DNA of 25,288 nt, taken from NCBI GenBank assembly GCA_008632985.1, contig QPGO01000256.1, forward strand, positions 62,001 to 87,288, given 5' to 3'. The notes under the pieces are model-generated. The model did no database searches. It saw nothing but the letters and a program-made list of their open reading frames with translations, and had not been told where the DNA came from. Position 1 is the stretch's first letter; the number at the start of each line of letters is the position of its first letter. Positions 5,440-25,288 of this stretch are shown piece after piece. Made by a program: the position numbers and the translations under genes. This stretch comes from Psammoneis japonica. Taxonomy: Eukaryota.

Positions 5440-8200
5440 TGGCTCCACACAGTGTGTTTTGCCAGAGTCCATTTGGCAACAGCCTAAAAAAGCAGGACAT
5501 CTTCCTGAAGAAGATGTGCATTCTTGTTCAGAAAAAAATGTCCGCATTGCTAGATTGTTTTGCTTTAAAATTTTTTGCTGGTGGCATCAAAACTCACTGC
5601 TTTTGGATCTCATTAATCTTGTCTGCTTCTGTTTCTTTGAGGTTGGCACTCAATTTTGCTTGAGCAAGATCCCTCCAAGCCCTCTTTCTGGCAACAAATG
5701 TGACACCTGCCCAAGGATGTGAGAGGAGTGAGGTGCATCTGTCCTTCCCCAATGCAGCTTCAATGGCTGATCACCACCCATGCTGCTCAGGGGTTTGTCC
5801 TGCTGTGTTGGAGGTGGGTTTTGGCAGAGTGAACTTTTGCCAGGGTGGTTGACACAGCTCGTCCCCAACTTTTGTTGCAGCCTTTTTCACCAGGAGTGGC
5901 CACAAATTCACAAGCAAAGAGGTGCTGCTGTCAGCTGCTGTGGCATCACATTGATCCAAAATTGAGAAAGCAGCGTGGTTGCTCAGGGAATTCACCAGAA
6001 GCAAGACTTGGTGCCATTTTCAGACTGGTTTCATGTGCACACTTGTGCTTTGGCACAGATGCCATTTTGCCAGTTTTTAATTTGTTGCTGTGATGCACAG
6101 CAGCCAGTGTCAAGTGACAACAGTCATTTCTTTTCATTCTTGGAGAAGCATTGGATTTCTGATTGGCAACGTTCATTGGCTTGTCTGCACTGGATGTGGC
6201 TCCATCATCTGTGAGTTTGCCAATGTCACACTGGACTTTTCCAAAGCTGCAAAGTCCACCTGGTGGTGGTGACATGTCAACTCACAAGGCTAGAGTTGGT
6301 GGTGCTGGAGCAGAGGCAATTGGATCCAGGGGATGCACCTTGTTGTGTCCCATGCCATGGACAAGCAGGCATCGGCCAAGTCAACCACAGTTTGACAAGT
6401 TCCCATGCAAAAGAAGTGTGGTGAGCTCTTGGTCCAGCCCGTGGGGAGCACCAGCAGCAAGGCCACCAGTGGCTCCTCTCCCAGTCCCAAAGGGAAAGCT
6501 GTTCTGAGCTTGGCCATGTCCTCCAGGCACAACCCAACTCTGCAGAATCTGTCCAAGAGATCCAGATCTATCATGTGAATGAATCTGCTTGGAGTGTGTT
6601 GCAGAACACTCAATCCAGTGCATGGCCAAATTGCATGGCCTCCAGTGGAGCAGGCTTGTGTGTCTTGTTGTTGAGACCACAGATGCTGCCTGCAACCAAC
6701 CCCACGGTGCAGTCTCCAGTGGATGGATGGCTGCCACAATCAACAGCCACCCAAATCTTGGAGGATGCCCTGTCTTCAGCAGTGAGTTGGACTGGGGCTC
6801 CATCACAGCAAAGACTTTCCAACAGCCTGGCAGCTGGATGGGGCAGCTCACTCACAGACCATGGTGCCAAATGAACTCCCTGTGTGGATGTTTCTCAAAA
6901 TGGAGCCAGCCTGAAGATTGTGAGAGTTTGATGCCTTCAACCACTGACTCACTCCAAGGGGGCTGCTGGTGTTGGTCAGGCAAGTTGGCAGGTGAGGGCT
7001 GCAGGTGAGTCCACTGACTTGCTGCTGGCCCAACACTTCAGGTGGAGAATGCCGCCAGTGTGGCTGCTGGCACCACCACTCCATCATCTTGAGGGTTGGG
7101 CAAATGTTCATGTGCAAAGGCACTCATGGCAGTGTGCTCACATCATGGTGCTGGGTTGTGACAGGTGCCACATTGCTCACAATTTGTCAAAGCACGTGCC
7201 TTTGAGAGGACAGTGGGAGAGGCAAATCTCACATGGGGCTCCACTGATGTTTGTTTGTTGAGGTGCAAAGCACTGCCACAGAGTGAGCAAACAAATTCCA
7301 GCCTGTTCTCACAGGGCCGGGGTTTGTGACAGCAGCTCCAATCATGCCAGTGGAGAGTCAACACTGCCTTGGGGATCCTTGGTTGATTTTGGACCCTGGC
7401 CCATCAGATGGGTCAGAAGTGAGAGCACACACTTTGTCAGGTGTTGGCAAGCAGTCTGGAATGCATGGGACTCCTCCTTGCATGAGTCAGCACAAGACTC
7501 CAGTCATGATCTGGATGACCTCTCAGCAGATCCACGGCAGAACATTGCCTTTGAGAACTCTGTGTGCTGGACTGTTTGAGAAGATCCACCACCATGTCCC
7601 GCCAGTCTTCCTGGCAGAACTCATTGCCTTGAAAACCAAAGATGTGCCCATCCTAAAGGTGAGGTTGTGACCAACTGTAAGTGGGAGAGGGTGACAGATG
7701 CAAGTGACTTGACAGCCGGCACACTGCAGCTTGGCAGTGCACACATGGCCACCGCTCTCTGGATCATGCACAAGAAGCAGGTGTTCCAGAGTGCAAGTGT
7801 GGAAGCCACAAACATCCATGGCACAATGGCTGAGGAGGTTGGTGGTGCATTCTCCACCCAAATGATTGCTTTGATCATCTGCTTGTCTTGAGAGTTTTGG
7901 GAGGTGCGAGTGTGGTGCTTCAGCAGCTGTGAGGGGGACAACAGGAGCCACGCTGAAGCATGGTGTGTGTCACTTTCTTTTTCAACATTGCAACTGCTGC
8001 TGTGGTCAATGGGTGGCAACAAGTTGCAAAACAGAATGCCATGGCATTCCGATCCGTTCAAGGTTGTGGGCGGGGCCAGCCATCCATGGCTGGCCTGGGC
8101 CAGGCACGGGCCGTACCTTGCCAGACACGTCTGTCCGTCCCATCGCAGCTCCAGTTGAGGGAAATCGAAAAGTGGTTATGTCGTACGCAGATCTATGTAG
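5440..8200. mobile_element. Decayed transposon block (boundaries approximate), almost devoid of TpA and CpG
   Basis: Abrupt compositional change between two genes. By hand, 5 TA in 5641-8100 and about 15 CG in 5641-8040. Contains an RT remnant. No termini could be defined. Confidence 0.75.
6370..6860 (-). pseudogene. Frameshifted reverse transcriptase remnant of a tyrosine-recombinase (DIRS/Ngaro-like) retrotransposon
   Basis: Minus-strand fragments LPHPAARLL..L..DGAPV, GLN...APLEAMQFGHALD, IHMIDLDLLDRFCRVGL (cf. KxDLSDGFYR) and AFP.G.GEEPLVALLLVLPTGWTKSSPHFFC (cf. LPMGWxxSPPYFC), in RT order. Recognised from memory, not searched. Confidence 0.7.
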
Positions 8201-8400
8201 GGGCCCTAGGTAGAAATGCACATGAAATTGTACTAAATATCATCTATAGCATTGAGGAGATTCAAATTATATGTAAATACAATTTTGAATATAATTATTA
8301 CAGTACAAACCCCTGTACATTTCTACACAACTCCATTTCCCGCGGTTTTTGCCTCCAGAGAAAAAATGATAACCTTACTCTCTCACAACAAAGCAACACC

Positions 8401-11400
8401 ATGGACGACGACTCGAATCTTTTACCGTCCGACAACATCATGCCTACAATGAAAAGTCGCAACAACAACGACGACGACTCGAGTAGTACTATCAGTAGTA
8501 GCAGTGACTCGTCGTCGTCCTCCGAAAGCCACGACGATTCGTCCAGCAGTGACGATGATGATTCTTCCGCGAGCAGCACCAACGACGTGGAGATGAATCC
8601 TTCCATCATCCATCAAGACTCCACCAACAATACAATTCCTGCTACGGTCGCGACGACGACGACGATACAACGACCAAGTCCGGTACAAAATCCATATCGT
8701 CCTTCCAAAGTAGAACCTCATGCTTCCACCGCTACGAGTGCTCCACGTACAGATTCTACGACGAGCAACAACGGTACTGCTTTGTCATTCCAAAAGAAGA
8801 AAAAGAACGAACCCACCGCATCCGTTTTTCCAAAAACTACCGCGTCCACTTCGCTTGTTCCGCCACATCGTCAAGAACAGAAACCACAAGTACCAGCCTC
8901 GACGGACGATTTGTTATCGTGCTTTTTTCAAGACTCCACGACGACCAACAACGACAACTGCGGTAGTAGCAGCAGTGCTTTTTTTGACAAGCACAAGCCG
9001 ACAGTAGCTGCATCTGATCTTCCGATCGCTACTTCTGCTTCGCAGCCGTCTCGTAAGCAACAAGAACAACCAGCACCATCACCCGCCGTCAATAGTACTA
9101 CTACTCCAGACGATTTCCTGTCGAGACTTGAACATGAGTCGTCATCCATTCCACAAGCTCAAGTCATCAATCCTCAAGAGATTCTTGCTCGTCGATGTTG
9201 TTCCAACAAGAATACTCCAGTATCCTCCAAAAAGCAACCCGTCGTTGTGCATTTATTGACACGCCAAACCCGTCCCAACCGTCCGTGTCTTGCAGTCAAG
9301 CAAGTGTTCGCCAATAATCATCATGATGGTGCAGCACAAGACTTGTTTCCATTCCAACAGTTCAATCCCATGCAATCGGAAATGGCATACCGTGTGGTCA
9401 ATCATAATAATTCGTCTCCAAAGAACATTGTTCTTTCGGCACCGACGGGAGCAGGCAAGACGAGTATTTTTGAAATGGCCATGGCGCGCATCATCTTGTC
9501 GTCGTCGTCGAACCAACAAGAACAACAAAAAATGGTGTACATGGCTCCAAGCAAGGCACTCTGTCAAGAGCGTTTCGAGGATTGGTCTAAGCGATTTGGA
9601 ACTCGAATCCACATTGCAGTGTTGACGGGAGACACTCTTGATGAGCAAGAATCGGCCTTTGCGACATTGGCATCGGCACAATTGATTTTGACCACACCGG
9701 AAAAATGGGATTCACTATCTCGGACATGGACGCATCATCACTTTGACCTGTTTGCCGCTGTCAAATTGTTCATGTTGGATGAAGTCCACTTGTTGGGTGA
9801 TGCGAGCCGTGGAGCGTGTTTGGAATCCATCATTTGTCGAACCAAAATGATTCAAGAAATCGTTCAAGCCTGCAAGGATGTGAACGGGTGAGTACAACGC
9901 AAGTTGAGCATTTGTACCGTAGTATCGCTTTTGTATCATTTCAAAACAACTCACCGACTCGTATCTATTTTTTCTCCGTCTAATGTCATACTACAGTTTC
10001 TCCCACGACACTCTTCCACAGCCATCAATACTCCAATCGGATTTACGAATCATTGCCGTTTCGGCCACACTTCCCAATTTGGCTGATATCGCTTCCTTTC
10101 TTCAAGCCAACGAGTGTTTTTGTTTTGACGATTCCTATCGTCCCGTTCCACTCACCACGCACGTGGTGGGATTGGGAAACATAATCAAGGGCAACACCTT
10201 TCTCTTTAATAGGAGTCTCAACAAACACGTGTCGCAAATCCTACAGCGCTTTTCGAGAAACAAGCCAAGCATTTGCTTTTGTCATACCAAAAAGGAAACG
10301 GAGCAACTCGCCGTGGAGTTGGCAGCGTCAAATAAGAATCCAAAGGAACCGAGGGCTCTACACACCCTCGCAGCCAAGACCAAGGTAGTGCAGTTGCAAA
10401 AGTGCTTGATGGGGGGATTTGCCTATCATCATGCCGGACTGGATGCCGACGATCGCAAGCTTGTCGAAAACGCCTTTGTGGCGGGTCAAATCTCATGTTT
10501 GTGTGCCACATCGACACTGGCCATGGGTGTCAATTTACCAGCGCACCTTGTCATCATCAAGGGCACGAGCGCGTGGCGTGGACAAGGAGGTCATCAAGAC
10601 GTGGATCGAGCGCAATTGTTGCAAATGATGGGACGAGCCGGACGACCCGGTTTTGATACCAGTGGGACGGCCGTCATTATGACGGATCACGCCTCCAAAA
10701 GACGTTATGAACAAGTCTCAAGTGGACTGTTGTCCACCGTTGAAAGTCAATTGCCCAATTCCTTGGTGGAGGTCTTGAATGCGGAAATTTCACAGCGAGT
10801 CATTGGATCCGTCGACCAAGCCATGTCGTGGATCAAGAAAACTTTTTTCTATCGTCGAGTGAGAACCAATCCGTCTCATTATGGTATGCTTATCAGGACG
10901 CCGGCGGATTTGGATGCTCAACTGCGGGATCTCGTTGTGCAGTCGATTGAAACGTTGAGCAGGCAAGGAATTGTATCAATTACTAGCAACGAAACGGTGG
11001 TTCCAATGCACGCCTCTCACGTCATGAGTCAGCACATGGTGGACTTTGATGCCATGAAGAGGATTGAGTGTCTACCGCACGATGCGGGACAACTCGACTT
11101 GCTTCAAACCCTGACGGAAATAGAAGGACTCCACCGACCGGTCCGTCGCGACGAGAAACGGAAGCTAAACAATATCCACAAAATGATTCGGTATCAGCTT
11201 CCCGGCCCACCCAGCAAGATTCGCATTCAAACTCCGCAACAAAAGGCCTTTGTCTTGTTACAAGCCGCCATTGGACAGCACAAATTCGACGACTACACGC
11301 TCCGTCAAGAAGTATCGTCTGTGGTGGAGTATGCGACGCGCATGTTGACGGCGGCCCAAGAGTACAGCGTGGACGCAAGCAAGCACGGTCAAGTGGCGCT

Positions 11401-13472
11401 GCAGAGCTTGCGGTTGCGACGGTCGCTGGCGACCAGCCTTTGGGGTGCTGGCAAGGAGGGGTTGGTTCTCAATCAGCTCTTGGGCATTGGGCTCAACACG
11501 GCAAAGAAGCTGAAATTCAACAAGATTCTGTCCTTTCAGGATGTCTTGCATACTTCGGCCGAGGATATTGAAAAGGCGGCGGCTCGATCTGGTGGATTCG
11601 GAAAGGACCTGAGGGTGGTGGTATCCAAGATTCTCAAGAGTACTCTTACCTTGACGGCCAAGGTGGAGAACGATAAAGATTCGAATCATTCTAAAGAGAT
11701 TGTTTGTACGTTTGCCAAAAACACCAGCTACGACGCCTTGATGGAGAGTTCCGCGTCGACTGGTAAGGACGCCACTGCCAATACCCGTCTCGTTACGTAC
11801 ACTCTTGCAGTTTACACGGATCGGCCAGGCGGATGTCTCCTGTTTCAGTCCAACATTGCTGGTCCCGGCGAGTACCGAATTCCGTGCCCGCCCGAATTCG
11901 GAAAAGTGTTTGTTCACGCCGTGTCTAATCTTGTTGGGCTTGACGAGTATCTTGAACTCCAGGGAAACGCCGAGGTGGTGAAATCCAAGTTCACCGCAAA
12001 CCCACTAAAATCAAAGGAATCGAAAAAACCGCGCAATACTTCCAATGCGTCCATCGACACGAAGAAAATGGCTCCCTCTCATTCTCAGTTTCGAGACTGC
12101 GTCAAGAACGTTGGAGACTTTCGTATCAAGAGCAAGCCCCCAGTGAAAAGCAAGAGATCATTGTTTCAGGGAAGCAAAAAGACTCCTGCAAAGGGAACCC
12201 ACGCAAATGGCAATAGTAATTTGACAGTCACCCCGTCACCGCCGCCACTGAGTATGGCGGCGGGTAGCGCCAACACTACCGTCGAGCGTGCTCCGCAGCC
12301 AATGGCTACAAGTACCAGAACATTCAATAACAACAGCAACTGGAGCCCACCTCGAAATCGCACACCACCGAGAAGCGCTGCTAGGTCAACATCGTCGGAA
12401 GCCAAGCCGTGGAAGAGGGCGAAAACCGAACAAAAGAATCTTCAGAAGCGAGCATTTCGGACCAAGAGCGAGAATCCTTTTGCGGAGTATTCGTTCGACC
12501 CGTGAGTAGAATTTCTCGCTTTTTGATCTGCACGAACTTTTGTTGAACTCGTTGTGCTCACTCTCTTTCGCTTCATCTAATACATTCAGGAATGACATTG
12601 AAGGCACCCTATTTCAGGCTGCCACAAAAAGCCAAGGGGAGCATATTCAACAAGAGGCACCCTCCGTGATCCCTCCCGGCACGTTTGAATCATTGCGGGC
12701 CGCTCACCAAACTCCGCAGTACCGACACTCGAGCGCCCCCTATGGGGCATCGGGAAGGGTGTTTAATCGCGCATTCAACACCGGACACCGCAAGAGAAAG
12801 GGAACAGGCCCGCGAATTCCAGAGACGGAGCTACTTCATATGAAAGCCGCGGAGCAAGAGAGACATGCACGAGAGCAACTTCAAAATAGCAGCCGGCGCC
12901 ATGACTCTCAGCAGTCAGGCATCTTTTTAAAGATGAGGAACGCCAGGCCAACTGTCTTTCCTCAAAACCATCCGTTCAATGACAATGTCTGCGGTGGTTC
13001 TAACATGATGGAAGAGTCGCTTGCTTCACCACCTCGATGCAATGACAGCTTGGGAGGGTCTATGGTTGCTGATGAGTGGGGTCCGCCGGAGCCAAGCTAT
13101 CGGAACGCACAAGGAAACTTTCAAGACGAAAGAGGTGCAATGCCCTGGTATGGATATTCTCTTGGTGCAGAGCCACCCAAGTACGGAGGAAACATAGCTA
13201 ACGAGCCCGTATACACTGGCGATTCCTCGACATGGGATACTTTCGAGACCCAAGGGGATACATTCGTCGGCCAAGAAAACCGACCAATCGGTTCGCAAGA
13301 TGAATGGCACCAGTCTCAACCAGTGGTGTACAGAGTACCAGTAGAAACTTCCAGGACCCCAAGAGGCGTAGTAGAGCCCACCCCAAGGTCCAGCTTTATT
13401 GAGCAGCAACCGAATTCACAACGTTCAAAGAGAAATTTGGAGGAAGAGAAGCTGCTCGAAGCTTTTTTCTAG
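8401..13472 (+). CDS. MER3: Meiotic DExH-box Ski2-like DNA helicase MER3/HFM1 with Sec63 domain; exons 8401-9887, 9997-12501, 12590-13472 (1624 aa)
   Basis: Motifs FNPMQSE, SAPTGAGKT, MAPSKALCQER, TTPEKWDSLSR, LDEVHLLGDASRGACLE, IIAVSATLPN, YHHAGL, TSTLAMGVNLPAHLVIIKGT, QMMGRAGRPGFDTSG, then a Sec63 region. Introns 9888-9996 and 12502-12589 (both GTGAGT...CTCAC...CAG, phase 2) join three ORFs in frame, 4875 nt total. The start codon is the likeliest choice, not proven. Confidence 0.9.
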
Positions 13473-13558
13473 GGAGAAAAGACAGCTCAGGCCGCGTGTT
13501 GGCTTCGGTCTCTAAGTTTCTTTCTCTGTAACTATATAACAACAGCATTCTCCAAAAA

Positions 13559-16500
13559 CTATCGCCACAACTTGATTGCCCCATCATATGAGCAACTGAG
13601 TAAGGTTCTTATGGGATACGAGATCATTTTCAAATCTGTAATAGAGTCATGATGTTTCGTTTCAGGTTTGGAAAGACCCCGCTGAAGCTTTCGCGGAATT
13701 TTTGAACTCTCAATTTCGCCGACACCCAAAGGCTCATTTTCCCTGCAAGTAATGAGTCGGCCGTAGTCAAAGTCGACACGAGCAAAGGTAGGCCTCTGTT
13801 GCCCCCCACTAATCGTATAACATTTCGTCGGAGACAAGAAATCAAAGTAACGAATATGGCAGTCGCTGCCTCCTGTTATGAGGTAGTCCCTCTTTTCGTG
13901 GCCACCAACGCTACCAACCATTCCCGTCATGCGACCTTTCGAGGCCGTGGATGCAAAATCAAAGCTATCAGGTAGACGGATATGCTTTCTCATCGATCGA
14001 CTGTGGTAATTCGTTGTGATTGGCACCTCGCGAAGAGACGGCAATGTTGTTGCTGGTGGATCCATGTATCCAGTACCAGGCTCAATGACGCGGAAGCATT
14101 GGCAACAGCTACTGCTTGCAATATCAAACATGGAGCACTCGTTGGGGCCGCATGCTGCAAACATGTACGGGCGTGCGTCGTTACTCGAGACGTTGTGCCC
14201 ATGAGGTAGTGCTGAATAGGATGTCGCAAGACGGTTCACAGGAGAAGCGCTGCTATGCTGCCACAGCTTTACCATTTGCTGAAACCGTATATCCCACAAG
14301 GCAAGGAACCCACGACTTGTACCAGTCACCATCCAATGACGATCGTTACCAAGTGACATGCTCGTCAGATACCCAATGTCAGGCCGGTGTTTCAAGATAA
14401 AGGGCTCTCTTGCACTTCTCAAGTCCCATGAATGAACCAAACCTTTTTGAGTGGCAAAGGATAGGATGGACGCAGAAGGGGTATTGAAATGAGAAACAGC
14501 AAGTACTTCTCCTTCCACTGGATCGATTTTGCGAATAAGACTACTTCCTGAAACCCTTGACATTTCGTACGTGTCACTGGTTCCTGCAGCAAACTTTTCC
14601 GCGATTTTCTTACTCGTTGTCACTGCGTCAACACGCCACACGTGCACAGACCCGTCACTGGCACCAGAAACTACAGAATGACTATTCTCGACAATTGCAA
14701 CATCATTGATTCGGGGATAGGCATGGCCTGCATCCTCAGTGTGACCAGAATAAGTCAGACTGCTCTCGAGAATCCCGACAGAGTCTTCTGCTTGTCGAAG
14801 CTCCCAAACACGACATGTACCATCGTGACTTGCTGATACAAAAAAGCCTTGATCTTTTGTAACCGCCAGTCGAGATACAGGAGCAGAATGGCCACTTTTC
14901 AAAGAGCTACTGGCTAAAAGGGCATCAGATTTTGGTCTCCATTCTCTAGATGACGTATCCTTGGGAGAAGCGGACGATGGGCGCTGAGATGTCACGGCTT
15001 GTCGACTACGTTCGCGTAGCACACCAAGGTTTGGAGGGAGTGGCGGCACGCTAAGGCCTTTCAACTTCGATGTGAGTAACATGGTATCGACATCGGACGG
15101 GTCCAATCGCGCTTCTGCGCCCCATTCACCAGTCGACGCAGAATCGATAACTTTCGATTCCGATGATGTCAGGATTTGCTTGGCATCGGCTTCTGTCAGA
15201 CGCTTGTCATCCGGAAACACGTCACCCTCTGAAGTCATGGCAGCGTCTAGCAATGCTTTGTCCTCTTCCGCTGGAGTTGACAGAGGCATGAGGGAGAGAC
15301 CATAGACCTTGCTCAGTGTAGCAACAGAGCGAATTCCGCATGTCTCGGAGCAATACGACCCATTGCTCTGAGAAAAGTCTCTCAAATCACTATACCACAT
15401 TGGCAAGTGAGCCGATCTCTGACCAGTGTATCTTTGGCTTGGAAACTTGACCTGTTGAGCGAGTTTCGGGTTACCTTCGATTGCATTTGCAAGATTACTC
15501 CGGAGAAATTCCTTCCGAGAAAGCGGGTCAAATACAAGTTTTCGGCTTCTCGACAACATGCGCAGATAGCTCGTGACTTGGCTAGAGTTTGATCCCACAA
15601 GAGGCTGAGAGGGAGAATCAATGCCTGCGGTATGCATATGGCTTGGTCCGTTGCCTCCATCGTTACCATCCTGTACGTCAATACCAATTGATGTCCACTT
15701 GCCCGAAGTCGGCGAGAAGGATTGCAGCTTGTCCAAGTTGTCCAGCTCCTCCCTAAGCCTTTCTTTTGTCCAAGGAGGATATAGGCAAGCTCTTAGTCCT
15801 TCTGAAGTGGTCAAATGGCGTTCCGTCGGTTCAAACCTTAGATATGGTCGAAGAAGAGGCACCAAGAACACATCTCGATCTGGAAATCCCATGGCCACAG
15901 AAGCTGCATTGACCAACTTGATGGCCCCGTTGCGAACATAAGCTGACGGGTACAACAAGAGTGGTGAGTACCTTTCAAACAAACCAATGTTCTTCCCGTT
16001 GCTTCTCGAACGACCCGTGGCATCAGCTTCTGAAGAGTACGCCGGCGTCCCGACAAGAGCGGAACGTGAAAGCAATCCCAATTCAACCAACGCAGCCAAG
16101 CATAGCAGTGCCTGACTCATGACTAGGTCTTCACCGTCCACGAGTGCAGTCTCCAAACAGGGCAATACAAAGTGCTCTGTGGCAGCCCTACCGACAATGA
16201 AACAGAGCGAGGGTAAATGTTCAAAGAGCGACGCCCGCAATTGCCAATCTCGTCGATCATTAAGAAAGGCAAGAATCTGAGGCAAAATAAATGCAATGAC
16301 TCCGTCACGACCAAAGAAGTTACACAACCGCGGCAAATCATGGAGCAAGCCCAACTTGGGTGGAGACGATTGCTCCGACTGATCGGTAGCAATATGCATG
16401 ACCCACCGCGACACCATTTCATGCAGACCGGCAAGTTCGACATTGTACGTGTTGCTAATGAGCGTCTTGTCACCGGCCGATGATGTAATCTTTTGGTTTT

Positions 16501-18757
16501 CCAAAGGAGTCGACGACCCTGACGATGCCTTTGCATTGTCCAAGCCTATCGAACCGCTGTCGTGCGGACTCTTTTTGCTACTGCTATTGTCATCTCCCAA
16601 GAGATTTGCAACATCATCGGCAAAAACGTTATCCTTTGTTTCGTCCTTTGCTTCCTTGGTTTCATGGGCATGACTTGCACCACCACCACCCACGGCTTCG
16701 TAAAGTCGTACAGCATGTGATATATCCAAGAATCTCAAAGACGTTTCCGCCAAGAGCGGAATGCATTCGGAAAATGCAATTCTCACGACAAGCGATTGAT
16801 CCGTCAAGAGATGAGCCACACGTTTAAATATGTATTGCGGAAACACTTTTGAATCCGACGGCGCAAAGCTCTCGATCCGTGCCAAGGTACTCGTGAGTAC
16901 ACGAATGGCACCGGCTCTCACAAGGGCGTCTTGATCGTGCAACAAATCAATCGTGGTGGGTACAATGCGTTGCAGACGAGCATCGTCGGTACAAGCATGG
17001 CGGCCAAGCCGCTGCAAGAGTTGCAATCCAACAAATTTGCTAGACGGCCGTTGGACGTGACGAATCGTGACGAGAATCAATTGCAAAAAGAGCAAAAGGG
17101 AACTCTTGCAAGATGGAGACCGGGACTCGTTCTTGTCAGTCACGTCGGTAGGAGGCTTTGATTCATCATGATGCTCTGGCTTCAACCGGCCTGCCGCTTC
17201 AGGTTCCGGTGCGACGACATTATCAATGGTTAGAGAATCTAGCTTGTCAAGCAATTCTTGGGTTTCCTTCATCAACTTGTCCAGGTCATTCTCTTGTGGA
17301 TGGTTATCTTTGTCCCCGCCTACATCTTGTTGTTGTTGTAGATCCGTCTCCTTGATATCTTCGTCGTCGTCCTCATTCTTGTCCAGCTTGATAATGGTTT
17401 CACCCAAGATTTGATCAAAATAGGCTTGTCCAGTCTCATCATGAATACCAAGACAGGCAAACAATACTCTATCATAATAGGAGGCCGCCATGGCAATACG
17501 AGCATCGGGTGTAATGACTGTTTGGTTCTTGGGAGCACAAATCACCTTTTGAAACAGCTCGGTAAACAAATCAAATGTCTCCGGCATGACGGGGGACCAA
17601 GAAGTGGATGGCTGTGACGTTGTTATGTTTTTTGCGTCCGAGGTTGAAGTACTCCTGTCAGCGTCTCTTCCACTACTACTCCCTTGTGGTTGTTGTTGTT
17701 CGAGTCGTTGCAAATACTCCTTTGCCGACAGTCGCTCTTTGGGATTTAAATGCAACATGTGTCGACAGGCAGCACGGGTCGAAGACGATTCAATCTTGTG
17801 TAGATTGGATAAAAGTGCCGCCGTCAGGGTGCCCTGTCGACGATATTCCATCAAATCCCCCAAATCCATGGCACGTTCACCGTTCAAAAAGAGTTCCATC
17901 ATGCAACAACCGACACTAAAAATGTCACTGGCCGGTGTCAATCGTGTCAAGCGTGTGTTGTTTGTTTCTGTGTTTTGAGCCGTAATAGTAGATGTTCTCG
18001 AGGGAGTATAGAAACGTTCCGGTGCCAAATAACAACGCTTTTCAGCACGCGGTGACGTTGTTTTTGTTGTGGAAGAATGTTGTTGTAATTGTTCTTGAAA
18101 ATAATACAAATACATGGACGGATCATCATCGGGTAAGGCCGTCACGTTGTGTTTATAGGATGAAACATCCAACAAAATTACATGATTCCAACTCGTCAAA
18201 CCGATATTTTCCGTTGTGAGGAAACCGTGCACCACGTTTTTATCATGCAAGTGTTGTACCGCACGCAACAATTGTCGCAAGACCCATTGTTTTTCCACAA
18301 CGTGCAAAAAGGGCCGACACGCCAATCGATCCGACAGTGTCGTGTACACGTGACTTCGCATGACATAAATCGGAATCATGGTGGCATTCGGATTGGCAGC
18401 AGCCGTAGACATAGGAGTCCCCACTTTCCAATACAAAAAAGGTGCCACATTTACCGAAGCATTATCTCGTAGTACTTGTTTGATGCGACGCAATTCAGCC
18501 TCTTGTTGTTCCAACGATTCCTCCAATTGCTTTGCAGGTACATACATGGACTTGACGACTACCAAATTACCAAGGGATGAATTCTTGAGCAAAAAGGTTT
18601 TGGACATGCGGCCCGAACCGGGAACCAAACGTTGCTCCACACTGTAGTTGGGAAAATTCCCAGCCAAGTCCAACTCCTCGTCTTGTATTGAGATTGTTGT
18701 TGTTGCACTTGTTGTTGTACTTGGAGGAGTGGATGACGAGGAGTGATGAGCGCCCAT
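13559..18757 (-). CDS. VPS15: Phosphoinositide 3-kinase regulatory subunit 4 / Vps15 (kinase-like domain, HEAT repeats, WD40), 1732 aa, apparently intronless
   Basis: MG start (MGAHHS) matching the myristoylated Vps15 N-terminus. Motifs TLSDRLACRPFL..VEKQW, LPDDDPS, RCYLAPERF, DIFSVGC, RLQRIVP, FPQYIF, AFLNDRRDWQLR, and WD40 motifs FVSASHDGTCRVWE and SCSYDGAIKLWR. Confidence 0.95.
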   Translation of the reverse strand: MGAHHSSSSTPPSTTTSATTTISIQDEELDLAGNFPNYSVEQRLVPGSGRMSKTFLLKNSSLGNLVVVKSMYVPAKQLEESLEQQEAELRRIKQVLRDNASVNVAPFLYWKVGTPMSTAAANPNATMIPIYVMRSHVYTTLSDRLACRPFLHVVEKQWVLRQLLRAVQHLHDKNVVHGFLTTENIGLTSWNHVILLDVSSYKHNVTALPDDDPSMYLYYFQEQLQQHSSTTKTTSPRAEKRCYLAPERFYTPSRTSTITAQNTETNNTRLTRLTPASDIFSVGCCMMELFLNGERAMDLGDLMEYRRQGTLTAALLSNLHKIESSSTRAACRHMLHLNPKERLSAKEYLQRLEQQQPQGSSSGRDADRSTSTSDAKNITTSQPSTSWSPVMPETFDLFTELFQKVICAPKNQTVITPDARIAMAASYYDRVLFACLGIHDETGQAYFDQILGETIIKLDKNEDDDEDIKETDLQQQQDVGGDKDNHPQENDLDKLMKETQELLDKLDSLTIDNVVAPEPEAAGRLKPEHHDESKPPTDVTDKNESRSPSCKSSLLLFLQLILVTIRHVQRPSSKFVGLQLLQRLGRHACTDDARLQRIVPTTIDLLHDQDALVRAGAIRVLTSTLARIESFAPSDSKVFPQYIFKRVAHLLTDQSLVVRIAFSECIPLLAETSLRFLDISHAVRLYEAVGGGGASHAHETKEAKDETKDNVFADDVANLLGDDNSSSKKSPHDSGSIGLDNAKASSGSSTPLENQKITSSAGDKTLISNTYNVELAGLHEMVSRWVMHIATDQSEQSSPPKLGLLHDLPRLCNFFGRDGVIAFILPQILAFLNDRRDWQLRASLFEHLPSLCFIVGRAATEHFVLPCLETALVDGEDLVMSQALLCLAALVELGLLSRSALVGTPAYSSEADATGRSRSNGKNIGLFERYSPLLLYPSAYVRNGAIKLVNAASVAMGFPDRDVFLVPLLRPYLRFEPTERHLTTSEGLRACLYPPWTKERLREELDNLDKLQSFSPTSGKWTSIGIDVQDGNDGGNGPSHMHTAGIDSPSQPLVGSNSSQVTSYLRMLSRSRKLVFDPLSRKEFLRSNLANAIEGNPKLAQQVKFPSQRYTGQRSAHLPMWYSDLRDFSQSNGSYCSETCGIRSVATLSKVYGLSLMPLSTPAEEDKALLDAAMTSEGDVFPDDKRLTEADAKQILTSSESKVIDSASTGEWGAEARLDPSDVDTMLLTSKLKGLSVPPLPPNLGVLRERSRQAVTSQRPSSASPKDTSSREWRPKSDALLASSSLKSGHSAPVSRLAVTKDQGFFVSASHDGTCRVWELRQAEDSVGILESSLTYSGHTEDAGHAYPRINDVAIVENSHSVVSGASDGSVHVWRVDAVTTSKKIAEKFAAGTSDTYEMSRVSGSSLIRKIDPVEGEVLAVSHFNTPSASILSFATQKGLVHSWDLRSAREPFILKHRPDIGYLTSMSLGNDRHWMVTGTSRGFLALWDIRFQQMVKLWQHSSASPVNRLATSYSALPHGHNVSSNDARPYMFAACGPNECSMFDIASSSCCQCFRVIEPGTGYMDPPATTLPSLREVPITTNYHSRSMRKHIRLPDSFDFASTASKGRMTGMVGSVGGHEKRDYLITGGSDCHIRYFDFLSPTKCYTISGGQQRPTFARVDFDYGRLITCRENEPLGVGEIESSKIPRKLQRGLSKPETKHHDSITDLKMISYPIRTLLSCSYDGAIKLWR

Positions 18758-18952
18758 GACTGAACAAAGAAAAGAGTTATAGAGTAGCAATATAAAGTGG
18801 CTGTGTTGTAAGGATGATAAAAAATCAGAGCATTCAGAGTGATAAAGTAACTTGGCTGTCCGATTCAATCTTGTGATGTGTTTGTCAGTATGATTGGGTG
18901 ATTGGTGCCCACAGATATTGAGCCCCAAAAGACCGTTTTGCACCGAAGATAA

Positions 18953-19899
18953 CCCTTTGACACATGGCCACTGTTATTTGGGGCCTGGCCCCAAATAATG
19001 CGCCATTCTGATTGGTCTAAATAAATAAATCCACAAGTAAATTTTGGCGGGAAAATAACGGCTAAATCGCTTGGGGCCTGGCCCCAAATGCACAAGGTTC
19101 GAGTGACGAATGTGCTCGAGGCATTGAAAGATTTTCATGGCTGTTTACGTCGATTGTTGCACTGGTGTGTTGAGCGATCACACGCGAAAACCCAGACGAG
19201 AAAACGAGATTTTTTGCCTCCGCAACAGCATCCATAGATGGCGACTCGACCGCCATTTCGGTGGCCGGAGAAAATGGCGGGAAAGCTGCAACCGTCATGC
19301 AGGAATCTCAGATTTCAGAATTGTTTGTTGGTGGAAACAAAAAATGAAAAGGAGTGGTTGAAAGTGCCGCATGGCAACAAACATCAAACCACCACAAGTT
19401 TGATTCTTGTTCTTGCTTGTTGACACAAAGTCAAATCTTACGGTGCCAAAATGATCAACAATCAAAATGAAAGTTGCGATGTAGATAAACCAAGCATGGT
19501 TGTTTTGATCGTGTTGTTTTCATTCATCTCAGACAACAATGAGGTGCTCGCCGTGTCGCGAACCTGACATTGTCGACTTCCCCCTGATTTGCCATGTTGT
19601 TTGCTCATCTGTGATTGACACACCGTTGATTTGGATGGAAAACAACCATGTGGCTAAAGTGACAACCAAACAGACACACATGAACACACAGAGTTCATGC
19701 TGTGAAGACCTGTCAGAACAGAGAGCAAATGGGGTCTCGCGTCCTGAAACCGCCATCATCGAGTCGTCGTGGTTCCCGTTTGCAAGAGCAGGCATCGTGC
19801 TCAAATCATGGTCGTCAAGATTCTGTCAGACAAAATGTCTGACCGTTAAATTCTCATTTGGGGCCTGGCCCCAAACAAGCAATTTCATGTGTCAAAGGG
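18953..19899. mobile_element. Non-autonomous piggyBac-like DNA transposon (947 bp), 195 bp upstream of the VPS15 start
   Basis: Perfect 14-bp TIR CCCTTTGACACATG (18953-18966) / CATGTGTCAAAGGG (19886-19899). At both ends a 7-bp spacer is followed by the palindrome TTTGGGGCC(T/A)GGCCCCAAA, with a third copy at ~19071-19088. Flanks are ATAA (18949-18952) and ACAA (19900-19903), consistent with a mutated 4-bp TSD. CCC...GGG ends suggest piggyBac. No transposase recognised. Confidence 0.8.
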
Positions 19900-19903
19900 A
19901 CAA

Positions 19904-20562
19904 CAGACGGAAAATCTGAAAAATGCACGCACACACGAAAAGTGGGGGATGAGCACGCAGGCAACTCTTTACAAACTGTGCAGGAAATGTGCCAGGGTTT
20001 GTGTAGAATTTGACAATGACACAATTCCATTTTGATGGCGACAAGTGGAAACACACATGGTTTTCCAGTGCAAATTTGACAGCGACGCCACAGACGGAAT
20101 CATTGTCAACACACCAAAAACTGCATCAGGTTTTCGATCACAGGGAATTCCTTGTTTGGCGCTTGACTTCCCCAGACAAGGAAAGACAAGGAACCAAGAA
20201 AAGGAAAAATTAATTGGTCATTCAATGTGCAGTTGCAACCATCATGATCCTTTCATCCAGCTAGAAGTTGATTTGTCCAGAGCCTCTGGCTGCCAAAACA
20301 CCTCTTTTTGTGCAATGCACTCAATGGGTGAGGCAGACACCACTGGGGGGCACTTTCTCAAGGACAAAAAGATGTGCTTCCACGGGGTTTCTTCAAGTGC
20401 AATCTGCTTGAAGCAAGCCCACAAAAGCTCAAGTTGGTGTGGCAAATCTGGCGCACATTGTGCAACAAAACAAAAGAGGAAAGCCTCTTTGTTTCCTTCA
20501 TTCAACAAGCCAATGAGGGGGGAATCAAGATGTCCCGTGAGCATGAGAGCGGGGTTTTGGGT
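19904..20562. other. TpA-depleted decayed sequence of unidentified origin, probably another repeat fragment
   Basis: Same compositional signature as the flanking transposons; no protein motif recognised. Confidence 0.4.
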
Positions 20563-20841
20563 TGACAGAAATTGAAGGGCAAATGGCAAGAATTCAAACA
20601 ACAACTCCTCACTGCTGTCTAAATGGCAGATGAGTCTCCACTCAGAGACCGTCACAGGAGCCAAAAGACGTGCAAGTCGGCACAATCGGGCTGCTGTTGT
20701 CATTCTTGTGAGCTGTGTGGCTCAAAAGCAAACTGCATCGCATGCACACGTGTGGAGCTGAAGAGCACAAAAAACTGTGTGCGGTGAACTAAATGGCATG
20801 CGACATTTTGCGCACACCCAAATCTTGTTCAAATCCTGTCA
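20563..20841 (-). repeat. 3' LTR (279 bp) of the copia remnant, preceded by a polypurine tract
   Basis: Minus strand reads ACTGGGGAG (PPT, 20842-20850), then TGACAGGATTTGAA...TTCAATTTCTGTCA, with TG...CA ends and short terminal inverted repeats. Lies just downstream of the RNase H remnant. Confidence 0.9.
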
Positions 20842-21241
20842 CTCCCCAGTTTGCTTGAGGAGTCACAGAAACAGATTCGAAGTCGGATTGGTTGAAAGCC
20901 TTGGGATCGAAGTTCCAAAACATTAGAGGATGAAGGAGGTTCCAGATTTGGGAGCAACCCCAATGCTTGCTGAGGATGTCAGCCGGGTTGCGGGAGCCTT
21001 CGATGGAATGAAACCTGAGGAAACCGGAGGCAATCGCCTCACGCACATGATGGAATGAGAGGGTGGTGTGTCACTTGTGCAACTTGGAGTGCGGGATGGC
21101 AGCACTGTCCACAACCGACTCTTGTTGTTTTCAGGAAGATCATCATTTGCAGGCCACGGAGAGACACTGCTCCGGAACAGACAATGTCGACGGGCCCGTC
21201 TGTGAGGTGTCCATCAGCAACAAGCCTTGCTTTGTGCCGTC

Positions 21242-21638
21242 GACGCGTTCCAGATGCAGGTGGGAATCCGTGTGACATTGGGCCCGTAGACTTCTGCATG
21301 CGGAGCTCCGCAGTAAAATCACACGGCAATTAAAATGTCAATGATCGCCAACAGAAAATGAGGCAATTTTGCGAATGCACAAACTCACACATGATTGAAG
21401 TGCATCATTTTTTACTTGGCCAGTTGCATTCTTCAGACATTGAAGAATGTAACTGGCGCACTGTTGTTTCTATAAATTTGTCATATAAAACGTCTGGGGC
21501 TTCGCAAAACAGCGAGTCTGGACAATTTTTTTTAAATGTCACACGTAGAAATCTACGTGCAAAACACACGACGGATGACAAAAATTGTTGTTGTCACACG
21601 TCAGCACTGCGAGCTCCCACCTGGGGCTGGAACGCGTC
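21242..21638. mobile_element. 397-bp MITE nested in the copia RT, 4-bp TSD
   Basis: TIRs GACGCGTTCCAGatgCAGGTGGGA / TCCCACCTGgggCTGGAACGCGTC. TSD CGTC at 21238-21241 and 21639-21642. Excision restores DVKHDG-R-HKARLVADG. Confidence 0.9.
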
Positions 21639-21943
21639 CGTCCATCATGTTTGACATCACAGATGAGATGCACCCGGATCTTCTTGTGTCCTGATGGAGC
21701 ACTGGAATCATTGTGGTGTCTGCAGTTGTGGAAGACCTTGCACTCATCAAGCTGTCAGACAACGCCACAGAGCCCGCATCATCAAAGCCATTGTGTCTCC
21801 CCACTTGCGGTTGCCATTGCACTCATCAAGGGCCATGGCATGCTTGCAGTCCCGTGGCACTTCATGCCCGTGCTTGCATCATGGCACAGTGCAAAAGGAG
21901 CGCAACTTGGCTTGGTTGGCCATGCGGAACAGCTTCTTCTGAT

Positions 21944-22222
21944 TGACAGGATTTGAATGGGATTTGGGTGCACGCGAAATGTCGCACGCTGTTTAGTTTG
22001 CCGCACACAGTTTTGTGTGCTCTTTAGTTCCGCGCGTGCGCGCACGATGTAGTTTGCTTTTGAGCCACAAGGCTCACAAGAACAATGACAGCAGCCCAAT
22101 TGTGCCGACTTGCATGTCTTTTGGCTCCTGCAACAGTCTCTGAGCAGAGACTCATCTGCCATTTAGACAGCAGCAAGGAGTCATTGTTTGAATTCTTGCC
22201 ATTTGCCATTCAATTTCTGTCG
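21944..22222 (+). mobile_element. Solo LTR (279 bp) of the same copia family, inserted in opposite orientation into the pol region
   Basis: Colinear, gap-free match to the reverse complement of 20563-20841. TSD CTGAT at 21939-21943 and 22223-22227. Removal restores GWRRFCKMTLH-QKKLFRMANQAKLRS. The terminal CA reads CG. Confidence 0.93.
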
Positions 22223-23680
22223 CTGATGAAGGGTCATCTTGCAAAAGCGTCTCCATCCTTTGGTTTCTAGAAGGCCGTGCTCACGCACGCAGACAGCACA
22301 GGTGATGGGGTTGTCCTTGGCAATGACGGCAAGGGGTTCGGACGTGATCTCCCCATTCTCCCATTCAAGCATGACGTTGCAGCTTGAGCCTTTCCAAGAG
22401 GGATCATGGGGTTGCAATGGTCCCTCGTGCAACACGATGCATCGGAACTTCCAGAGGGCAGTGTCCTCGTCTTCTTGCTCAATGTGGTGCATGATGTCAT
22501 TGCAGGCCAGGACTTCCTCACATTCGTCATTGTTGATGGAGCAAATGAACTTGACCAGTTCAGGATTGTCTCCGATTTTCCAGTCATGGTCCTCAACGGC
22601 TTTGACGATGCGGGCTCTGTGGCGTTGTCCATCCTCTTGTGGCTTCATGAGGAAGGTGCGTTCTGTGATGTCCTTGGGGTCAAAGACCGGCATTTTGGGC
22701 ATCCTGATTGCCTCCCCATCTGGTGAATCTGGCAAATCCTGGGAGTCGTGGCGGGATTTAATGACAGGTTCAGCAGATTTCTTGTCAGGAGGATCAAGAT
22801 GCAGGTTTGGAGCAGAGATGGATCACGGGCGGGGCGCACGTTGGAACGGCAGGGAATCTTCTGAGTGTCGTCAGAAAGAATCTTGACCATCATTTGGTGG
22901 CCAATGTGCTTGGCAATGCCAACGTCAGTGTCATTGGGCTTCGCGTTGGAGCGGGCAGAAGGTGCAAATCCGGGAGGTTTCTCACCTGAACGGGCAGAAG
23001 GAGGCCGTTCAGGTGCCAGGAAACGTTGCAAGTCACCGGGTGGCAGGGGCTTGCGCCTGGTGAGATGAGCCAGAATGGGGTTGGCATCGGCTGCATCGCC
23101 ACCTACGAGCACAAATGAAAGTAGAATCAAGCATGAAAAGTGAAAATTGTGAGATTGAATTTTGCTCTGTGATTTTTGGTTTCTCCGAATGAGCTCTCAA
23201 TGGCCTAAAGCTTCTGCACTGCTTCTACAGACAAAAGGCCTTTCGGAGAATATATTCGTGACAACAGATTGTCCGGATGCGATTGCTGTTGACACGTAAG
23301 ATGTCAACATCGTCAATCGATCGTATTTGCAATTTTCGACATCCGATCAACTCTGTGTGGCATCGTTCTGTCCTTTGTACGCATCCACGACTGTGGTACG
23401 ATTGACATATATAATATATAATTCCAAATATGTATATAACAGTCGCATGCTGCATTCGCCTCCCTAATTGCGCATTAGAGTTATTCGTTAAGTGGAATAA
23501 TTTGACTGACATTGACACTGTCAATAATGTCTCCACGTTAACTGTATTGTGCCATTAGCAATGACTGTTGTTGTTTTATATTATAGGCCAGCATAGGGCC
23601 GGCCGTTTCACTTTCCAAATGTCTTTCGAGAGTGTCATGGTTTGTCTCACGCTCTATGTGTATATGTAACGGTGCATGTG

Positions 23681-23694
23681 TATATATATATATA
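23681..23694. repeat. (TA)7 microsatellite within a TA-rich island
   Basis: tatatatatatata. Confidence 0.7.
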
Positions 23695-24341
23695 AATATA
23701 CTGTAGTATTGCGTCGAGTGGACAGAAGGAGCAATTGTCCTGCTGTTCTTTCATGGTATCGATTGTACATAGCATTCTGCCCAGCACTCGATGTACAGTG
23801 CGCTCCTAATTGGCGTTCACTTACTTTACTTACTTGTGGATTTCGCCATATTGCTCTATTGCACTACCACGTTTCATAAGTAGTAATTAACGATGGTCAA
23901 GGATATGACCATTTCGTCTTGACATTCAATCCTGTGATGGTTGTGAATTCCATCATGGATTTTTTGTACTTTAACCATCTGTCAGTTGGATTTTAATCGT
24001 CATTTGGACGTTTCTTTTTGACATGCCGGTGTCATTTTGTCTTTCCGAAGGCACTGCTTTCGTGCACTAAGTGGATAATGTCCATTTTTCTTTTCTTTTT
24101 CTGAATCTTTGGCACCCCTGTGGCAGGGGAGCTGTGTGTGTGTGCGTGGTTGTGCGCGCACGGCTTCGCCGTGCGTTGAGTTTTAATGTCAACATCCGCA
24201 CGAATGTGTGTGTTCCACAAGTAAAAATTCCCATTCCACAGCTCCCCTGAAACTCCAACCACCAAAAACCGAGGGGTCGGAAGCGCACTTTCGGGAGCTC
24301 TTTTTCTCCGCACAAAAAACACGCGTTTCATCGACTCGACC

Positions 24342-25168
24342 ATGATGATGCCTCGTAGTTCTTCCCCATCGCCTTCCCAGGACGCCGATCCTGCTGACAC
24401 CGTTGCTGACAACACTGACACAACAGGTGATGTCATCATTCCGGTTCTCGTGGGTGTGACACGCACAAAATAAGATGCTACAAACTCACACTGTTGTTTG
24501 CACGCTCCACCGCCTCCCACAGATGCTGTCACGAATTCCAACACCGCACCTGCGTTTCGGGCCCCTGGCATGCCCGATGCTGTCACTCCTGCCCTTGCTG
24601 CCGCAGGTGCTGTTGATGCTGTCATTGCATTTTGCCAATGACGTCCACAATGAAATGCTGACAACTCACACTTCTTTCATTCTCGCCCCACCGCCTCCCA
24701 CAGATGCCATCACGAATTCCAACGCCGCACCTGCGTTTCGGCCCCCCAGCATGCCCGACACTGTCGCTCCTGCCCTTGCTGCCGCAGGTGCTGTTGATGC
24801 TGTCATTGTCTTTTGCCAATGACGTCCACAACGAAATGCTTGTAACTCACACTTCTTTCATTCACGCCCCACCGCCTCCCACAGATGCCATCACGAATTC
24901 CAACGCCGCACCTGCGTTTCGGCCCCCCAGCATGCCCGACACTGTCAACCCCACCCTTGCTGCCGCAGGTGCTGTTGACACTGTCATTGTTTTTGCTTTG
25001 GAAGGAGCACAATGGATGACGGATGACGGCGGACCAGGAAACCCACGCAACCACGGCCTGCTGATGGACGACACATCAATGGACATGAATGGTGCCTCTT
25101 GGTCAGCTCTCGAGTGCAGTCCAATCTTCAGAATGTGCAGGCACATTGTGCAGCTCTCTGTAAATTAG
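24342..25168 (+). pseudogene. Candidate spliced gene or pseudogene built from duplicated 84-nt exons; exons 24342-24426, 24523-24606, 24704-24787, 24885-(24968 or 25168)
   Basis: Three 96-97 nt GT...CTCAC...pyrimidine-rich...CAG segments, all phase 1. Splicing gives MMMPRSSSPSPSQDADPADTVADNTDTT then three copies of DA(V/I)TNSN(T/A)APAFR(A/P)P(G/S)MPD(A/T)VxP(A/T)LAAA. Lies in TpA-depleted DNA, so probably repeat-borne or dead. Confidence 0.5.
24470..24996 (+). repeat. Tandem repeat, 181-bp period, about 2.9 copies
   Basis: CCGCCTCCCACAG ends at 24522, 24703 and 24884. GCCGCAG|GT junctions at 24606, 24787 and 24968. Confidence 0.92.
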
Positions 25169-25288
25169 AAACCTGACAACAAGCAGGCATGCTTTCACAG
25201 TTTTTTAGTTTCAAGTTGGAGAGGTCAGCGAATTGGCATTTGTTTGCAGGCGACTTGGCAAGGTTTCAAATGGTGCATGTGACTTGGC

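Follow-up and report, generated by a model that had tools for sequence, protein, structure and literature searches.

Post-insertion loss of TpA in Psammoneis japonica transposons depends on a six-base sequence context

Transposons already inserted in the genome of Psammoneis japonica are subject to a mutator that causes A>G at TpA on one strand or the other, leaving TpG or CpA. The neighbors of the TAs that escape offer a fingerprint for locating a DNA-mutating enzyme. We analyzed a window of 25,288 nt (GCA_008632985.1, QPGO01000256.1, positions 62,001–87,288, forward strand), which has the following features, in window coordinates.

5440..8100, no strand: second TA-erased block, with CG erased too; 7 of 9 surviving TAs are YTAR.
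8200..18770: host genes, a helicase with a Sec63 domain (+) and a VPS15-like kinase (−), taken as unmutated control.
18950..19899, no strand: ~950-bp repeat whose ends are hairpin-like (GGGGCCTGGCCCC), with partial conversion (12 aligned copies, 42 TA-type sites).
19500..23100, no strand: TA-erased block of nested repeats (TpA o/e 0.08–0.21 per kb), where 27 TAs remain, 14 of them YTAR.
19956..20563, no strand: repeat family of ~600 bp (19 aligned copies, 27 TA-type sites).
20563..21241, − strand: rearranged Ty1/copia LTR-retrotransposon fragment with LTR-like sequence.
21242..21637, no strand: young MITE-like insertion of 396 bp, carrying terminal inverted repeats and retaining 39% of its TA sites.
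21638..23096, − strand: heavily converted Ty1/copia fragment, whose family (36 copies, 209 TA-type sites) was used for the rate model.
23105..24115, no strand: member of a multi-copy repeat family that is TA-rich and has escaped conversion here, whereas its counterpart on contig C82 has been converted.
23940..25288, no strand: third block poor in TA, containing a tandem repeat of 181 bp; YTAR makes up 6 of its 14 surviving TAs.

TpA o/e in the genes stays at 0.4–0.7. Positions 20564–20844 are an inverted copy of 21941–22221 (86% identity), and the RT of the copia family at 20563..21241 corresponds to PF07727. The MITE is missing from the second haplotype (contig C82). Across 23105..24115, C82 differs from the window by 54 TA>TG/CA changes and 2 in reverse; the idea of a single-copy region to which conversion had spread on one haplotype was dropped when the region proved to be a repeat.

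An earlier note on this DNA had claimed that the TAs surviving in 19500–23100 are mostly YTAR, and had read this as the fingerprint of an enzyme with a TAY target motif. All 12 survivors that it listed are YTAR (one lies at 19655, not 19654), and the exceptions that it named are all real. YTAR accounts for the 14 of 27 TAs given above and for 12 of 15 when the MITE is left out; in the window's gene-rich DNA (1–5200 and 8201–18800) its share is 61 of 530 (Fisher p = 1e-6 and 5e-9, respectively). The TA count inside this block is small. The pooling of many repeats, which the note had set as the decisive test, gave the same result: in 19 pieces of 10 kb, taken from large contigs at round coordinates, YTAR made up 64 of 111 TAs in 500-bp windows that were TA-poor (TpA o/e <0.1), whereas in windows with o/e of at least 0.3 it made up 860 of 5415 (p = 6e-23). 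TA-poor windows occurred in 11 of the pieces, and in all but one of these YTAR reached a share of 40% or more; the exception was 1/10. Of the 209 TA sites inferred to be ancestral in the copia family, only 34 were YTAR, and ancestral composition therefore cannot account for the excess. The enrichment of YTAR among survivors is confirmed. YTAR sites were themselves also mutated (survival 0.39–0.53).

The nature of the change was examined in the 36 copia copies, which were chosen as the top BLAST hits of a single query rather than drawn at random. At the 209 sites, the cells read TG 1968, CA 1501, TA 1151, CG 10, and other 33; changes were almost exclusively transitions (3469 versus 33 other and 10 CG), in a site set whose filter favors the purity of these counts and is blind to sites converted identically in all copies. 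The near absence of CG is explained by the initial hit abolishing the TA. Without the site filter, 17 Tyr columns in 20 copia copies contained Cys 127, His 76, Tyr 66, and Arg 2, and the same columns in 120 outside RT homologs contained Tyr in 1908 of 2015 cells; the replacement of a conserved Tyr by Cys or His fixes the direction as TA>TG/CA. One outside protein (P0120) carried Cys or His in 6 of the 17 columns. The earlier note had also expected Tyr codons after a pyrimidine to become mostly TGY and CAY to follow mostly purines. Both tendencies were present but weak: TG was the outcome in 920 of 1384 changed cells for Y-TAY (66%) and in 773 of 1366 for R-TAY (57%), and a purine preceded 593 of 1057 CA outcomes.

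Across 15 TA-type sites, the paired LTRs of 14 elements disagreed in 83 of 210 cells, and 52 of these disagreements were CA versus TG. Because sister LTRs disagree, the conversion occurred after insertion. Editing of retroelement RNA by ADAR would be expected to give sense-strand A>G and like sister LTRs, whereas the coding-strand bias in the copia family was 1.05 and the LTR differences fell on both strands, an outcome that RNA editing cannot produce. These data bear on the reading that needs no special mutator and invokes ancestral composition, stop-codon avoidance, CpG decay, RNA editing before reverse transcription, or chance. The few TAs in 19500–23100 suit it, as does the fact that TG and CA are also the products of CG decay. 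However, the ancestral YTAR share was low, the pattern recurred in 19 other pieces and in short repeats with no evident coding function, and the Tyr replacements set the direction. This reading is already refuted, and we assign it almost no probability.

The conversion rate depended on the bases on both sides of the TA. Relative to A, the rate in the copia family was 3.1 (C), 1.3 (G), and 3.6 (T) at position +1 and 0.48 (C), 0.48 (G), and 0.42 (T) at −1; three other families pooled (100 sites) gave 4.3, 2.2, and 4.8 at +1 and 0.40, 0.51, and 0.33 at −1. A 3′ pyrimidine therefore makes a site 3- to 5-fold faster than a 3′ A, and a 5′ A makes it about 2-fold faster. The family at 23110–23960, with just 1 of 9 copies converted, gave an uninformative estimate of 0.53 for C at +1 (interval 0.04–3.0). 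Bases at ±2 contributed about 2-fold, T at −2 or A at +2 slowing the site further; in the 19 independent pieces, A at +2 was found in 57% of YTAR survivors versus 35%, and in other contexts in 56% versus 26%. These outer bases explain the three exceptions within 19500–23100 (TTTACA, TGTAGA, and TGTAGT). The fastest context was ATAT, followed by ATAC/GTAT; TTAA and CTAA/TTAG were slow, and T-Y-TA-R-A was the coldest. Rates fitted to copia predicted the ranking of survivors in the 19 pieces (Spearman −0.95, 10 contexts). YTAR sites remain because their rate is slow.

Most of the flank effect was symmetric across the duplex, the two strands of a site sharing most of it (the log-likelihood improved by 251 with just the symmetric term and by 137 with just the strand term); the symmetric term is based on survival, which nucleosome placement or context-dependent I:T repair may also shape. 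The choice of strand was raised 1.6- to 1.7-fold by a 3′ C in both data sets and only 1.2-fold by a 3′ T. The proposed TAY motif thus stands insofar as a 3′ pyrimidine speeds A>G, but a strand-specific TAY is not the whole rule, and the interpretation as an enzyme fingerprint is partly supported. The dominance of the symmetric part, with A-tract-like TTTAAA contexts coldest, would also be expected if the lesion were flank-blind at any TpA and the pattern arose from repair efficiency or access (A-tract stiffness, nucleosome position). We consider this very improbable, since the strand choice at 3′ C requires a strand-specific step and the 3′-Y bias at non-TA adenines follows TA loss.

That bias was seen in 26 heavily converted copies, where AAY>AGY occurred in 71 of 3359 cells versus 27 of 4888 for AAR, and CAY changed in 102 of 5938 versus 53 of 7247 for CAR; it was absent in 6 lightly converted copies. 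A bias limited to heavily converted copies is as expected of a mutator fingerprint. The leak was small. In the heavily converted copies, ~87% of TA sites had changed versus 0.6–2.1% of other adenines; CAY changed in 17 per 1000 cells and TA in about 870 per 1000, an approximately 50-fold difference, and AA was mutated about 40 to 150 times less than TA.

Bacterial TadA has TACG as its tRNA substrate. In our data, TACG was unfavored (0.71, interval 0.47–0.91), hairpin context had no effect (rho −0.03), and distance to CG sites explained nothing (rho −0.12, p = 0.07). Tracts of hits along one strand were not found, the autocorrelation staying within 0.011 at all distances, although a nominally positive signal (3 of 200 permutations) came from one distance bin out of the four. 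A TadA/ADAT2-type deaminase with a strand-specific TAY preference, acting on transiently single-stranded DNA (bubbles, R-loops, or forks) and in line with what the Bigelowiella authors suggest, is therefore rather unlikely: a single-strand or stem-loop substrate does not fit these results, nor does it fit the mainly symmetric flank effects and the lack of coding-strand bias. The discrimination between TA and CAY is also far stricter than YAY. On the other side, TadA-like and ADAT2-like genes are present in the genome, and the combination of 5′ T and 3′ Y, with AAR as the least-mutated non-TA context, resembles the editor ABE7.10, which favors YAY and disfavors AAA (PMC10188366).

An error-prone polymerase of the Pol eta or Pol iota type, inserting G opposite T during repair synthesis aimed at silenced repeats, would account for A>G on either strand and in a duplex context with no deaminase involved, and the AAY leak bears a faint resemblance to Pol eta's WA motif. 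Pol eta has WA hot spots including AA and also makes transversions. At the TA sites here, however, transversions were nearly absent (33 other versus 3469, with Tyr columns almost only Cys or His), AA lay far below TA, 3′ G, which slippage would favor, ranked below C and T, and background transversions were not raised in converted copies (3.3 per kb versus 3.8 per kb in lightly converted copies). We regard this route as quite improbable. Deamination of adenine in duplex DNA fits the data better than either Pol eta or a TadA-type editor of single strands.

Some copies were mutated and others of like apparent age were spared. The 6 lightly converted copies resembled the heavily converted ones in CG survival (0.61 versus 0.57), in non-CG C>T, and in background transversions, which indicates that TA loss was not set by age alone. 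In the MITE family, 13 of 30 copies were converted and 17 unconverted, a grouping that similarity-based sampling could yield. All 8 copies examined of the 23105..24115 repeat, a family with about 40 matches, were unconverted, so high copy number is insufficient for conversion. Many multi-copy elements likewise escaped, and the block at 5440..8100, which has only distant matches (65–82% elsewhere in the genome for 6300–7300), was erased. Across copies, TA and CG survival were only weakly correlated (rho 0.30, p = 0.08), too little to establish a methylation link. Near-complete erasure affected 111 of 380 sampled 500-bp windows; about 29% of the sampled genome has thus been reshaped, and any dating of its transposons is biased by the process.

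We judge it slightly better than even that a post-insertion TpA mutator deaminates adenine in duplex transposon DNA at a rate dependent on at least six bases, and this is our best explanation. Adenine would be deaminated to hypoxanthine in genomic DNA and read as G by replication. The enzyme itself we infer only from this pattern. It would engage each TA site as a duplex and singly, as suggested by flank effects that are mostly strand-symmetric and hits that do not run along one strand, and a contact to a 3′ C may bias the choice of adenine. Recruitment would probably be to silenced (CG-methylated) transposon chromatin and not via repeat pairing, and genome defense is the likely role.

Searches of the genome with the profiles PF00383, PF14437, PF18778, and PF08210 and one protein query pinned no enzyme to the signature and returned housekeeping-like deaminases, which from sequence features we take to be dCMP deaminase, TadA, ADAT2-like, guanine-deaminase-like, and RibD-like proteins. 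The ADAT2-like gene (L113), assigned by sequence, is of a kind found in most eukaryotes. The genome also has one AID/APOBEC-like gene, whose upstream ATG is out of frame; this family converts C to U, opposite in direction to the signature. With the replicated six-base rate table, the enzyme hunt becomes a direct test: a candidate should follow the order ATAT > ATAC > GTAC > CTAC > TTAC > CTAG > CTAA > TTAA and favor the strand that reads TAC. It should also be indifferent to TACG and to hairpins, with some leakage at AAY and CAY.

A scan of viral contigs with a mutated window peptide revealed no relative. The best 80 of 554 metagenome copia relatives had TpA o/e of 0.45–1.02, none erased, with 2 of 764 windows below 0.2; this says little, as the scan depends on Tyr codons and selects against converted copies. 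A literature search for diatom TpA depletion or repeat-induced A-to-G, with most subscription journals outside its coverage, returned nothing matching; PMC9998398 deals with DNMT5 and transposon methylation in Phaeodactylum.

RIP in ascomycete fungi changes C to T at CpA, raises TpA, and is triggered by the pairing of similar repeats. It resembles the process here in riddling already inserted repeats with dinucleotide-specific transitions on both strands and, probably, in serving genome defense, but the direction is opposite: RIP creates TpA from CpA, and the process here removes TpA. DddA-type double-stranded DNA cytosine deaminases have a strict 5′ T and a duplex substrate, and deaminate C rather than A. 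Apart from the target base, which is A here, a strict 5′ T with duplex action and no strand tracts is the pattern that our data suggest. To our knowledge, there is no natural adenine deaminase acting on double-stranded DNA. ABE7.10 is alike in acting on A>G in DNA with 5′ T and 3′ pyrimidine favored and AAA disfavored; unlike the process here, it is engineered, works on single strands, and accepts CA, whereas here 5′ C is nearly excluded and the flanks act mostly symmetrically.

The single published description of a TpA to TpG/CpA process that we found concerns the unrelated alga Bigelowiella natans. According to the main text of the preprint, integrated NCLDV and virophage DNA is hypermutated at TpA, mutation-accumulation lines yielded this same substitution, and the process is active in some lineages only, at about 6e-7 per site per generation; its authors propose adenine deamination with ADAT2 as candidate enzyme (Mettrop et al., 10.64898/2026.01.13.699255). 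That text presents no analysis of flanks and does not contain "trinucleotide," "context," or "diatom," and its Table S2 or Fig. 2B could carry flank data. As far as the preprint shows, both systems change A>G/T>C at TpA in nuclear DNA, on both strands, in foreign or mobile targets, and unevenly across targets. Here too, changes are almost only transitions, confined to TpA apart from the small AAY/CAY leak, and genes are spared. The targets there are viral inserts, whereas here, in a diatom-like stramenopile, they are several transposon kinds with a six-base rule; the rate was measured there and is inferred from copies here. Applying the rate table to the Bigelowiella list of 231 de novo mutations could separate common origin from convergence. 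Tentatively, and with clearly less than even confidence, we suggest a natural duplex adenine deaminase, the A counterpart of DddA, that is guided to silenced transposon chromatin, requires TpA, and reads a six-base context; the same or a convergent enzyme would make the Bigelowiella signature, giving an A-to-G defense in two SAR branches. If true, such an enzyme would be a new genome-defense chemistry and a sought-after editing tool.

The window lies in a eukaryotic assembly of 91.4 Mb and carries a prolyl-hydroxylase-like gene and genes for an FG-GAP protein, a Sec63-domain helicase, and a VPS15-like kinase. TpA o/e was 0.4 to 0.7 in genes and mostly 0.02 to 0.21, with raised CA and TG, in the blocks 5440–8100, 19500–23100, and 23940–25288. 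The following repeats were located:

18950–19899: further repeat family
19956–20563: further repeat family
20563–21241 and 21638–23096: pieces of a rearranged Ty1/copia element
21242–21637: young MITE-like insertion

In the main repeat family, a reverse transcriptase (RT) has a homolog at 65% identity that is named from Cylindrotheca fusiformis, suggesting a diatom-like host. Contig C82 of the same assembly (L271–L272) carries a second, diverged haplotype or a duplicate of 12408–24115, with other insertions and without the young MITE; the VPS15-like gene is 97.6% identical between the two. In block 5440–8100, CG is erased as well as TA (CG o/e 0.06–0.13), and matches elsewhere reach only 65 to 82%. 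A peptide from this block (6290–6739, minus strand) is reminiscent of DIRS-like reverse transcriptases, and a Pfam search on it found no domain. Three 181-bp tandem units at 24503–25045 are TA-poor. Target duplications of the young MITE family (L122–L151) seem to be 4 bp long and to vary in sequence; in 29 of the 30 copies sampled, one or both flanks are TA-poor.

To follow the loss of TpA, 36 copia copies were aligned against one real, lightly changed copy as a scaffold. At 209 inferred TA sites, the copies had TG (1968), CA (1501), TA (1151), CG (10), or other dinucleotides (33). Because the site filter favors purity of the TG/CA outcome, an independent check of direction used 17 columns where 120 outside homologs have Tyr in 1908 of 2015 cells. 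Here, 20 copies showed Cys in 127 cells, His in 76, Tyr in 66, and Arg in 2; most other cells were Phe or Leu and came from two columns in which the copia family differs. RIP was rejected because the direction is from TA to TG/CA. Both LTRs of one element are identical at the start, and sister LTRs were discordant in 83 of 210 cells (14 elements, 15 TA-type sites), with CA facing TG in 52. This result indicates that the change occurred in genomic DNA after insertion and on both strands, which excludes RNA editing. Between-copy agreement at changed sites (median 0.64) matched that predicted from site preference alone (0.65); hits are therefore largely independent. In the copia copies, the coding-strand hit ratio was 1.05, and tracts of hits along one strand were not found. 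Pure A>G change in DNA, as adenine deamination would produce, points to such deamination. An error-prone polymerase of the Pol eta type, whose signature comprises AA hot spots and transversions, mismatches the data on both and is quite unlikely.

Conversion differed among copies. With the scaffold and three intermediate copies left out, TA survival was 0.56 in 6 lightly and 0.13 in 26 heavily converted copies, which were alike in CG survival, other C>T changes, and transversions, so that age is not the sole factor. In the MITE family, losses in the 13 converted copies of 30 were 268/399 for TA and 44/329 for CG, compared with 34/524 and 2/438 in the 17 unconverted copies; converted copies thus look older too, with TA loss several times ahead of CG loss. 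A TA-rich repeat copy at 23105–24115 (approximately 40 matches) is unconverted amid two converted blocks, and the matching place on C82 is converted; all eight fetched copies of its family, a sample biased as best matches to a TA-rich query, are unconverted. Chromatin state likely selects the copies, and transposon methylation via DNMT5 is described for diatoms (PMC9998398). TA and CG loss correlated only weakly across copies (rho 0.30), so that targeting through methylation or chromatin is an inferred step.

The earlier note held that YTAR dominates the surviving TAs in 19500–23100. YTAR accounted for 14 of 27 TAs there, and for 12 of 15 once the young MITE was set aside, compared with 61 of 530 in gene-rich DNA. 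Enrichment persisted in a pool of 19 stretches of 10 kb, taken from large contigs at round rather than random coordinates and divided into 500-bp windows (TpA o/e <0.2 in 111 of 380): YTAR made up 64 of 111 TAs at TpA o/e <0.1 and 860 of 5415 at ≥0.3. TA survival ranged from 0.09 (ATAT) to 0.53 (TTAA), indicating that YTAR is slowed, not immune. The YTAR survival pattern is real.

Flank effects were quantified using a per-strand hazard model, in copia with site bootstrap and in the pooled repeats of 18950–19899, 19956–20563, and the MITE.

Conversion rates relative to A at the same position (copia; pool of three other families with 61 copies and 100 sites)
3′ C: 3.1; 4.3
3′ G: 1.3; 2.2
3′ T: 3.6; 4.8
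5′ C: 0.48; 0.40
5′ G: 0.48; 0.51
5′ T: 0.42; 0.33

Across 10 contexts in the 19 independent pieces, survivors were enriched in the order that the copia rates predict (Spearman −0.95). TACG was not favored (0.71), and neither hairpins nor proximity to CG sites had a clear effect on the TA rate. The symmetric, both-strand term alone gained 251 log-likelihood units and the strand-choosing term alone 137; positions ±2 gained 142 and 29, respectively. The strand term was chiefly 3′ C in copia (1.6–1.7-fold; T, 1.2-fold) and in the other families (1.7-fold; T, 1.2-fold), where C at +2 also had a strand effect (1.6-fold). Of the TAY target motif proposed earlier, the faster conversion before a 3′ pyrimidine stands, but the flank effect is chiefly symmetric and strand choice depends mainly on 3′ C. 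A T at −2 halved the rate, as did an A at +2; among survivors in the independent pieces, A at +2 reached 57% versus 35% (YTAR) and 56% versus 26% (other contexts). Of the 15 survivors in 19500–23100 that lie outside the MITE, 14 carry one or the other, among them the three sites there previously listed as exceptions to YTAR.

In the heavily converted copies, A>G at non-TA adenines was also raised (12.8 versus 4.9 per kb), with the excess concentrated at AAY and CAY; this links the 3′-Y bias to the mutator and not to TA-site choice. Flank-blind damage followed by flank-dependent repair is unlikely. A duplex substrate best fits the symmetric flank effects and the lack of tracts, strand bias, and any influence of hairpins. 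We lean slightly toward adenine deamination on duplex DNA, in which contact to a 3′ C would pick the strand. A TadA/ADAT2-type deaminase acting on single-stranded DNA with a strand-specific TAY motif would share 5′ T and 3′ Y with ABE7.10 (PMC10188366), but CA is nearly excluded here and the flank effects are symmetric, making this enzyme type an unlikely source.

Deaminase profile and protein searches of the genome did not find the mutator enzyme. The deaminases found are a housekeeping-like set and one gene of a small family:

L262 1057–2031 (G000:C2, approximately 247.0–248.0 kb), minus strand: AID/APOBEC-like deaminase gene (NAD1, E 8e-12; SNAD4, E 1e-12)

This gene belongs to a C>U family and has 10 relatives with E values up to 1e-10. 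Its long ORF does not share a frame with the upstream ATG, and the same holds in short-read contigs from one sample, possibly the source of the assembly. At L112 313–1785 (minus strand, G000:C79), a zinc deaminase domain is fused to a 2-oxoglutarate/Fe(II) dioxygenase, probably for nucleobase metabolism. A tandem-domain dCMP deaminase gene encodes an identical protein on two contigs (L108–L109; G000:C41 and C317), which are probably haplotigs.

P0120, an outside copia RT from an ENA contig (63% identical), has Cys or His at 6 of 17 conserved Tyr positions and is possibly a trace of this process in a second genome. The literature searched contained no report for diatoms and no flank rule; figures or supplements of the Bigelowiella natans preprint (10.64898/2026.01.13.699255) may contain flank data. 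Within that literature, the preprint is the one earlier description of this kind of process, the TpA hypermutation of B. natans, which the process here resembles: the changes are likewise nearly only A>G/T>C, confined to TpA, and found in integrated DNA of foreign or mobile origin, with genes spared. New here are the replicated six-base rate table, the separation of a symmetric from a strand-choosing component of the flank effect, and the leak at non-TA adenines that matches the rate table.
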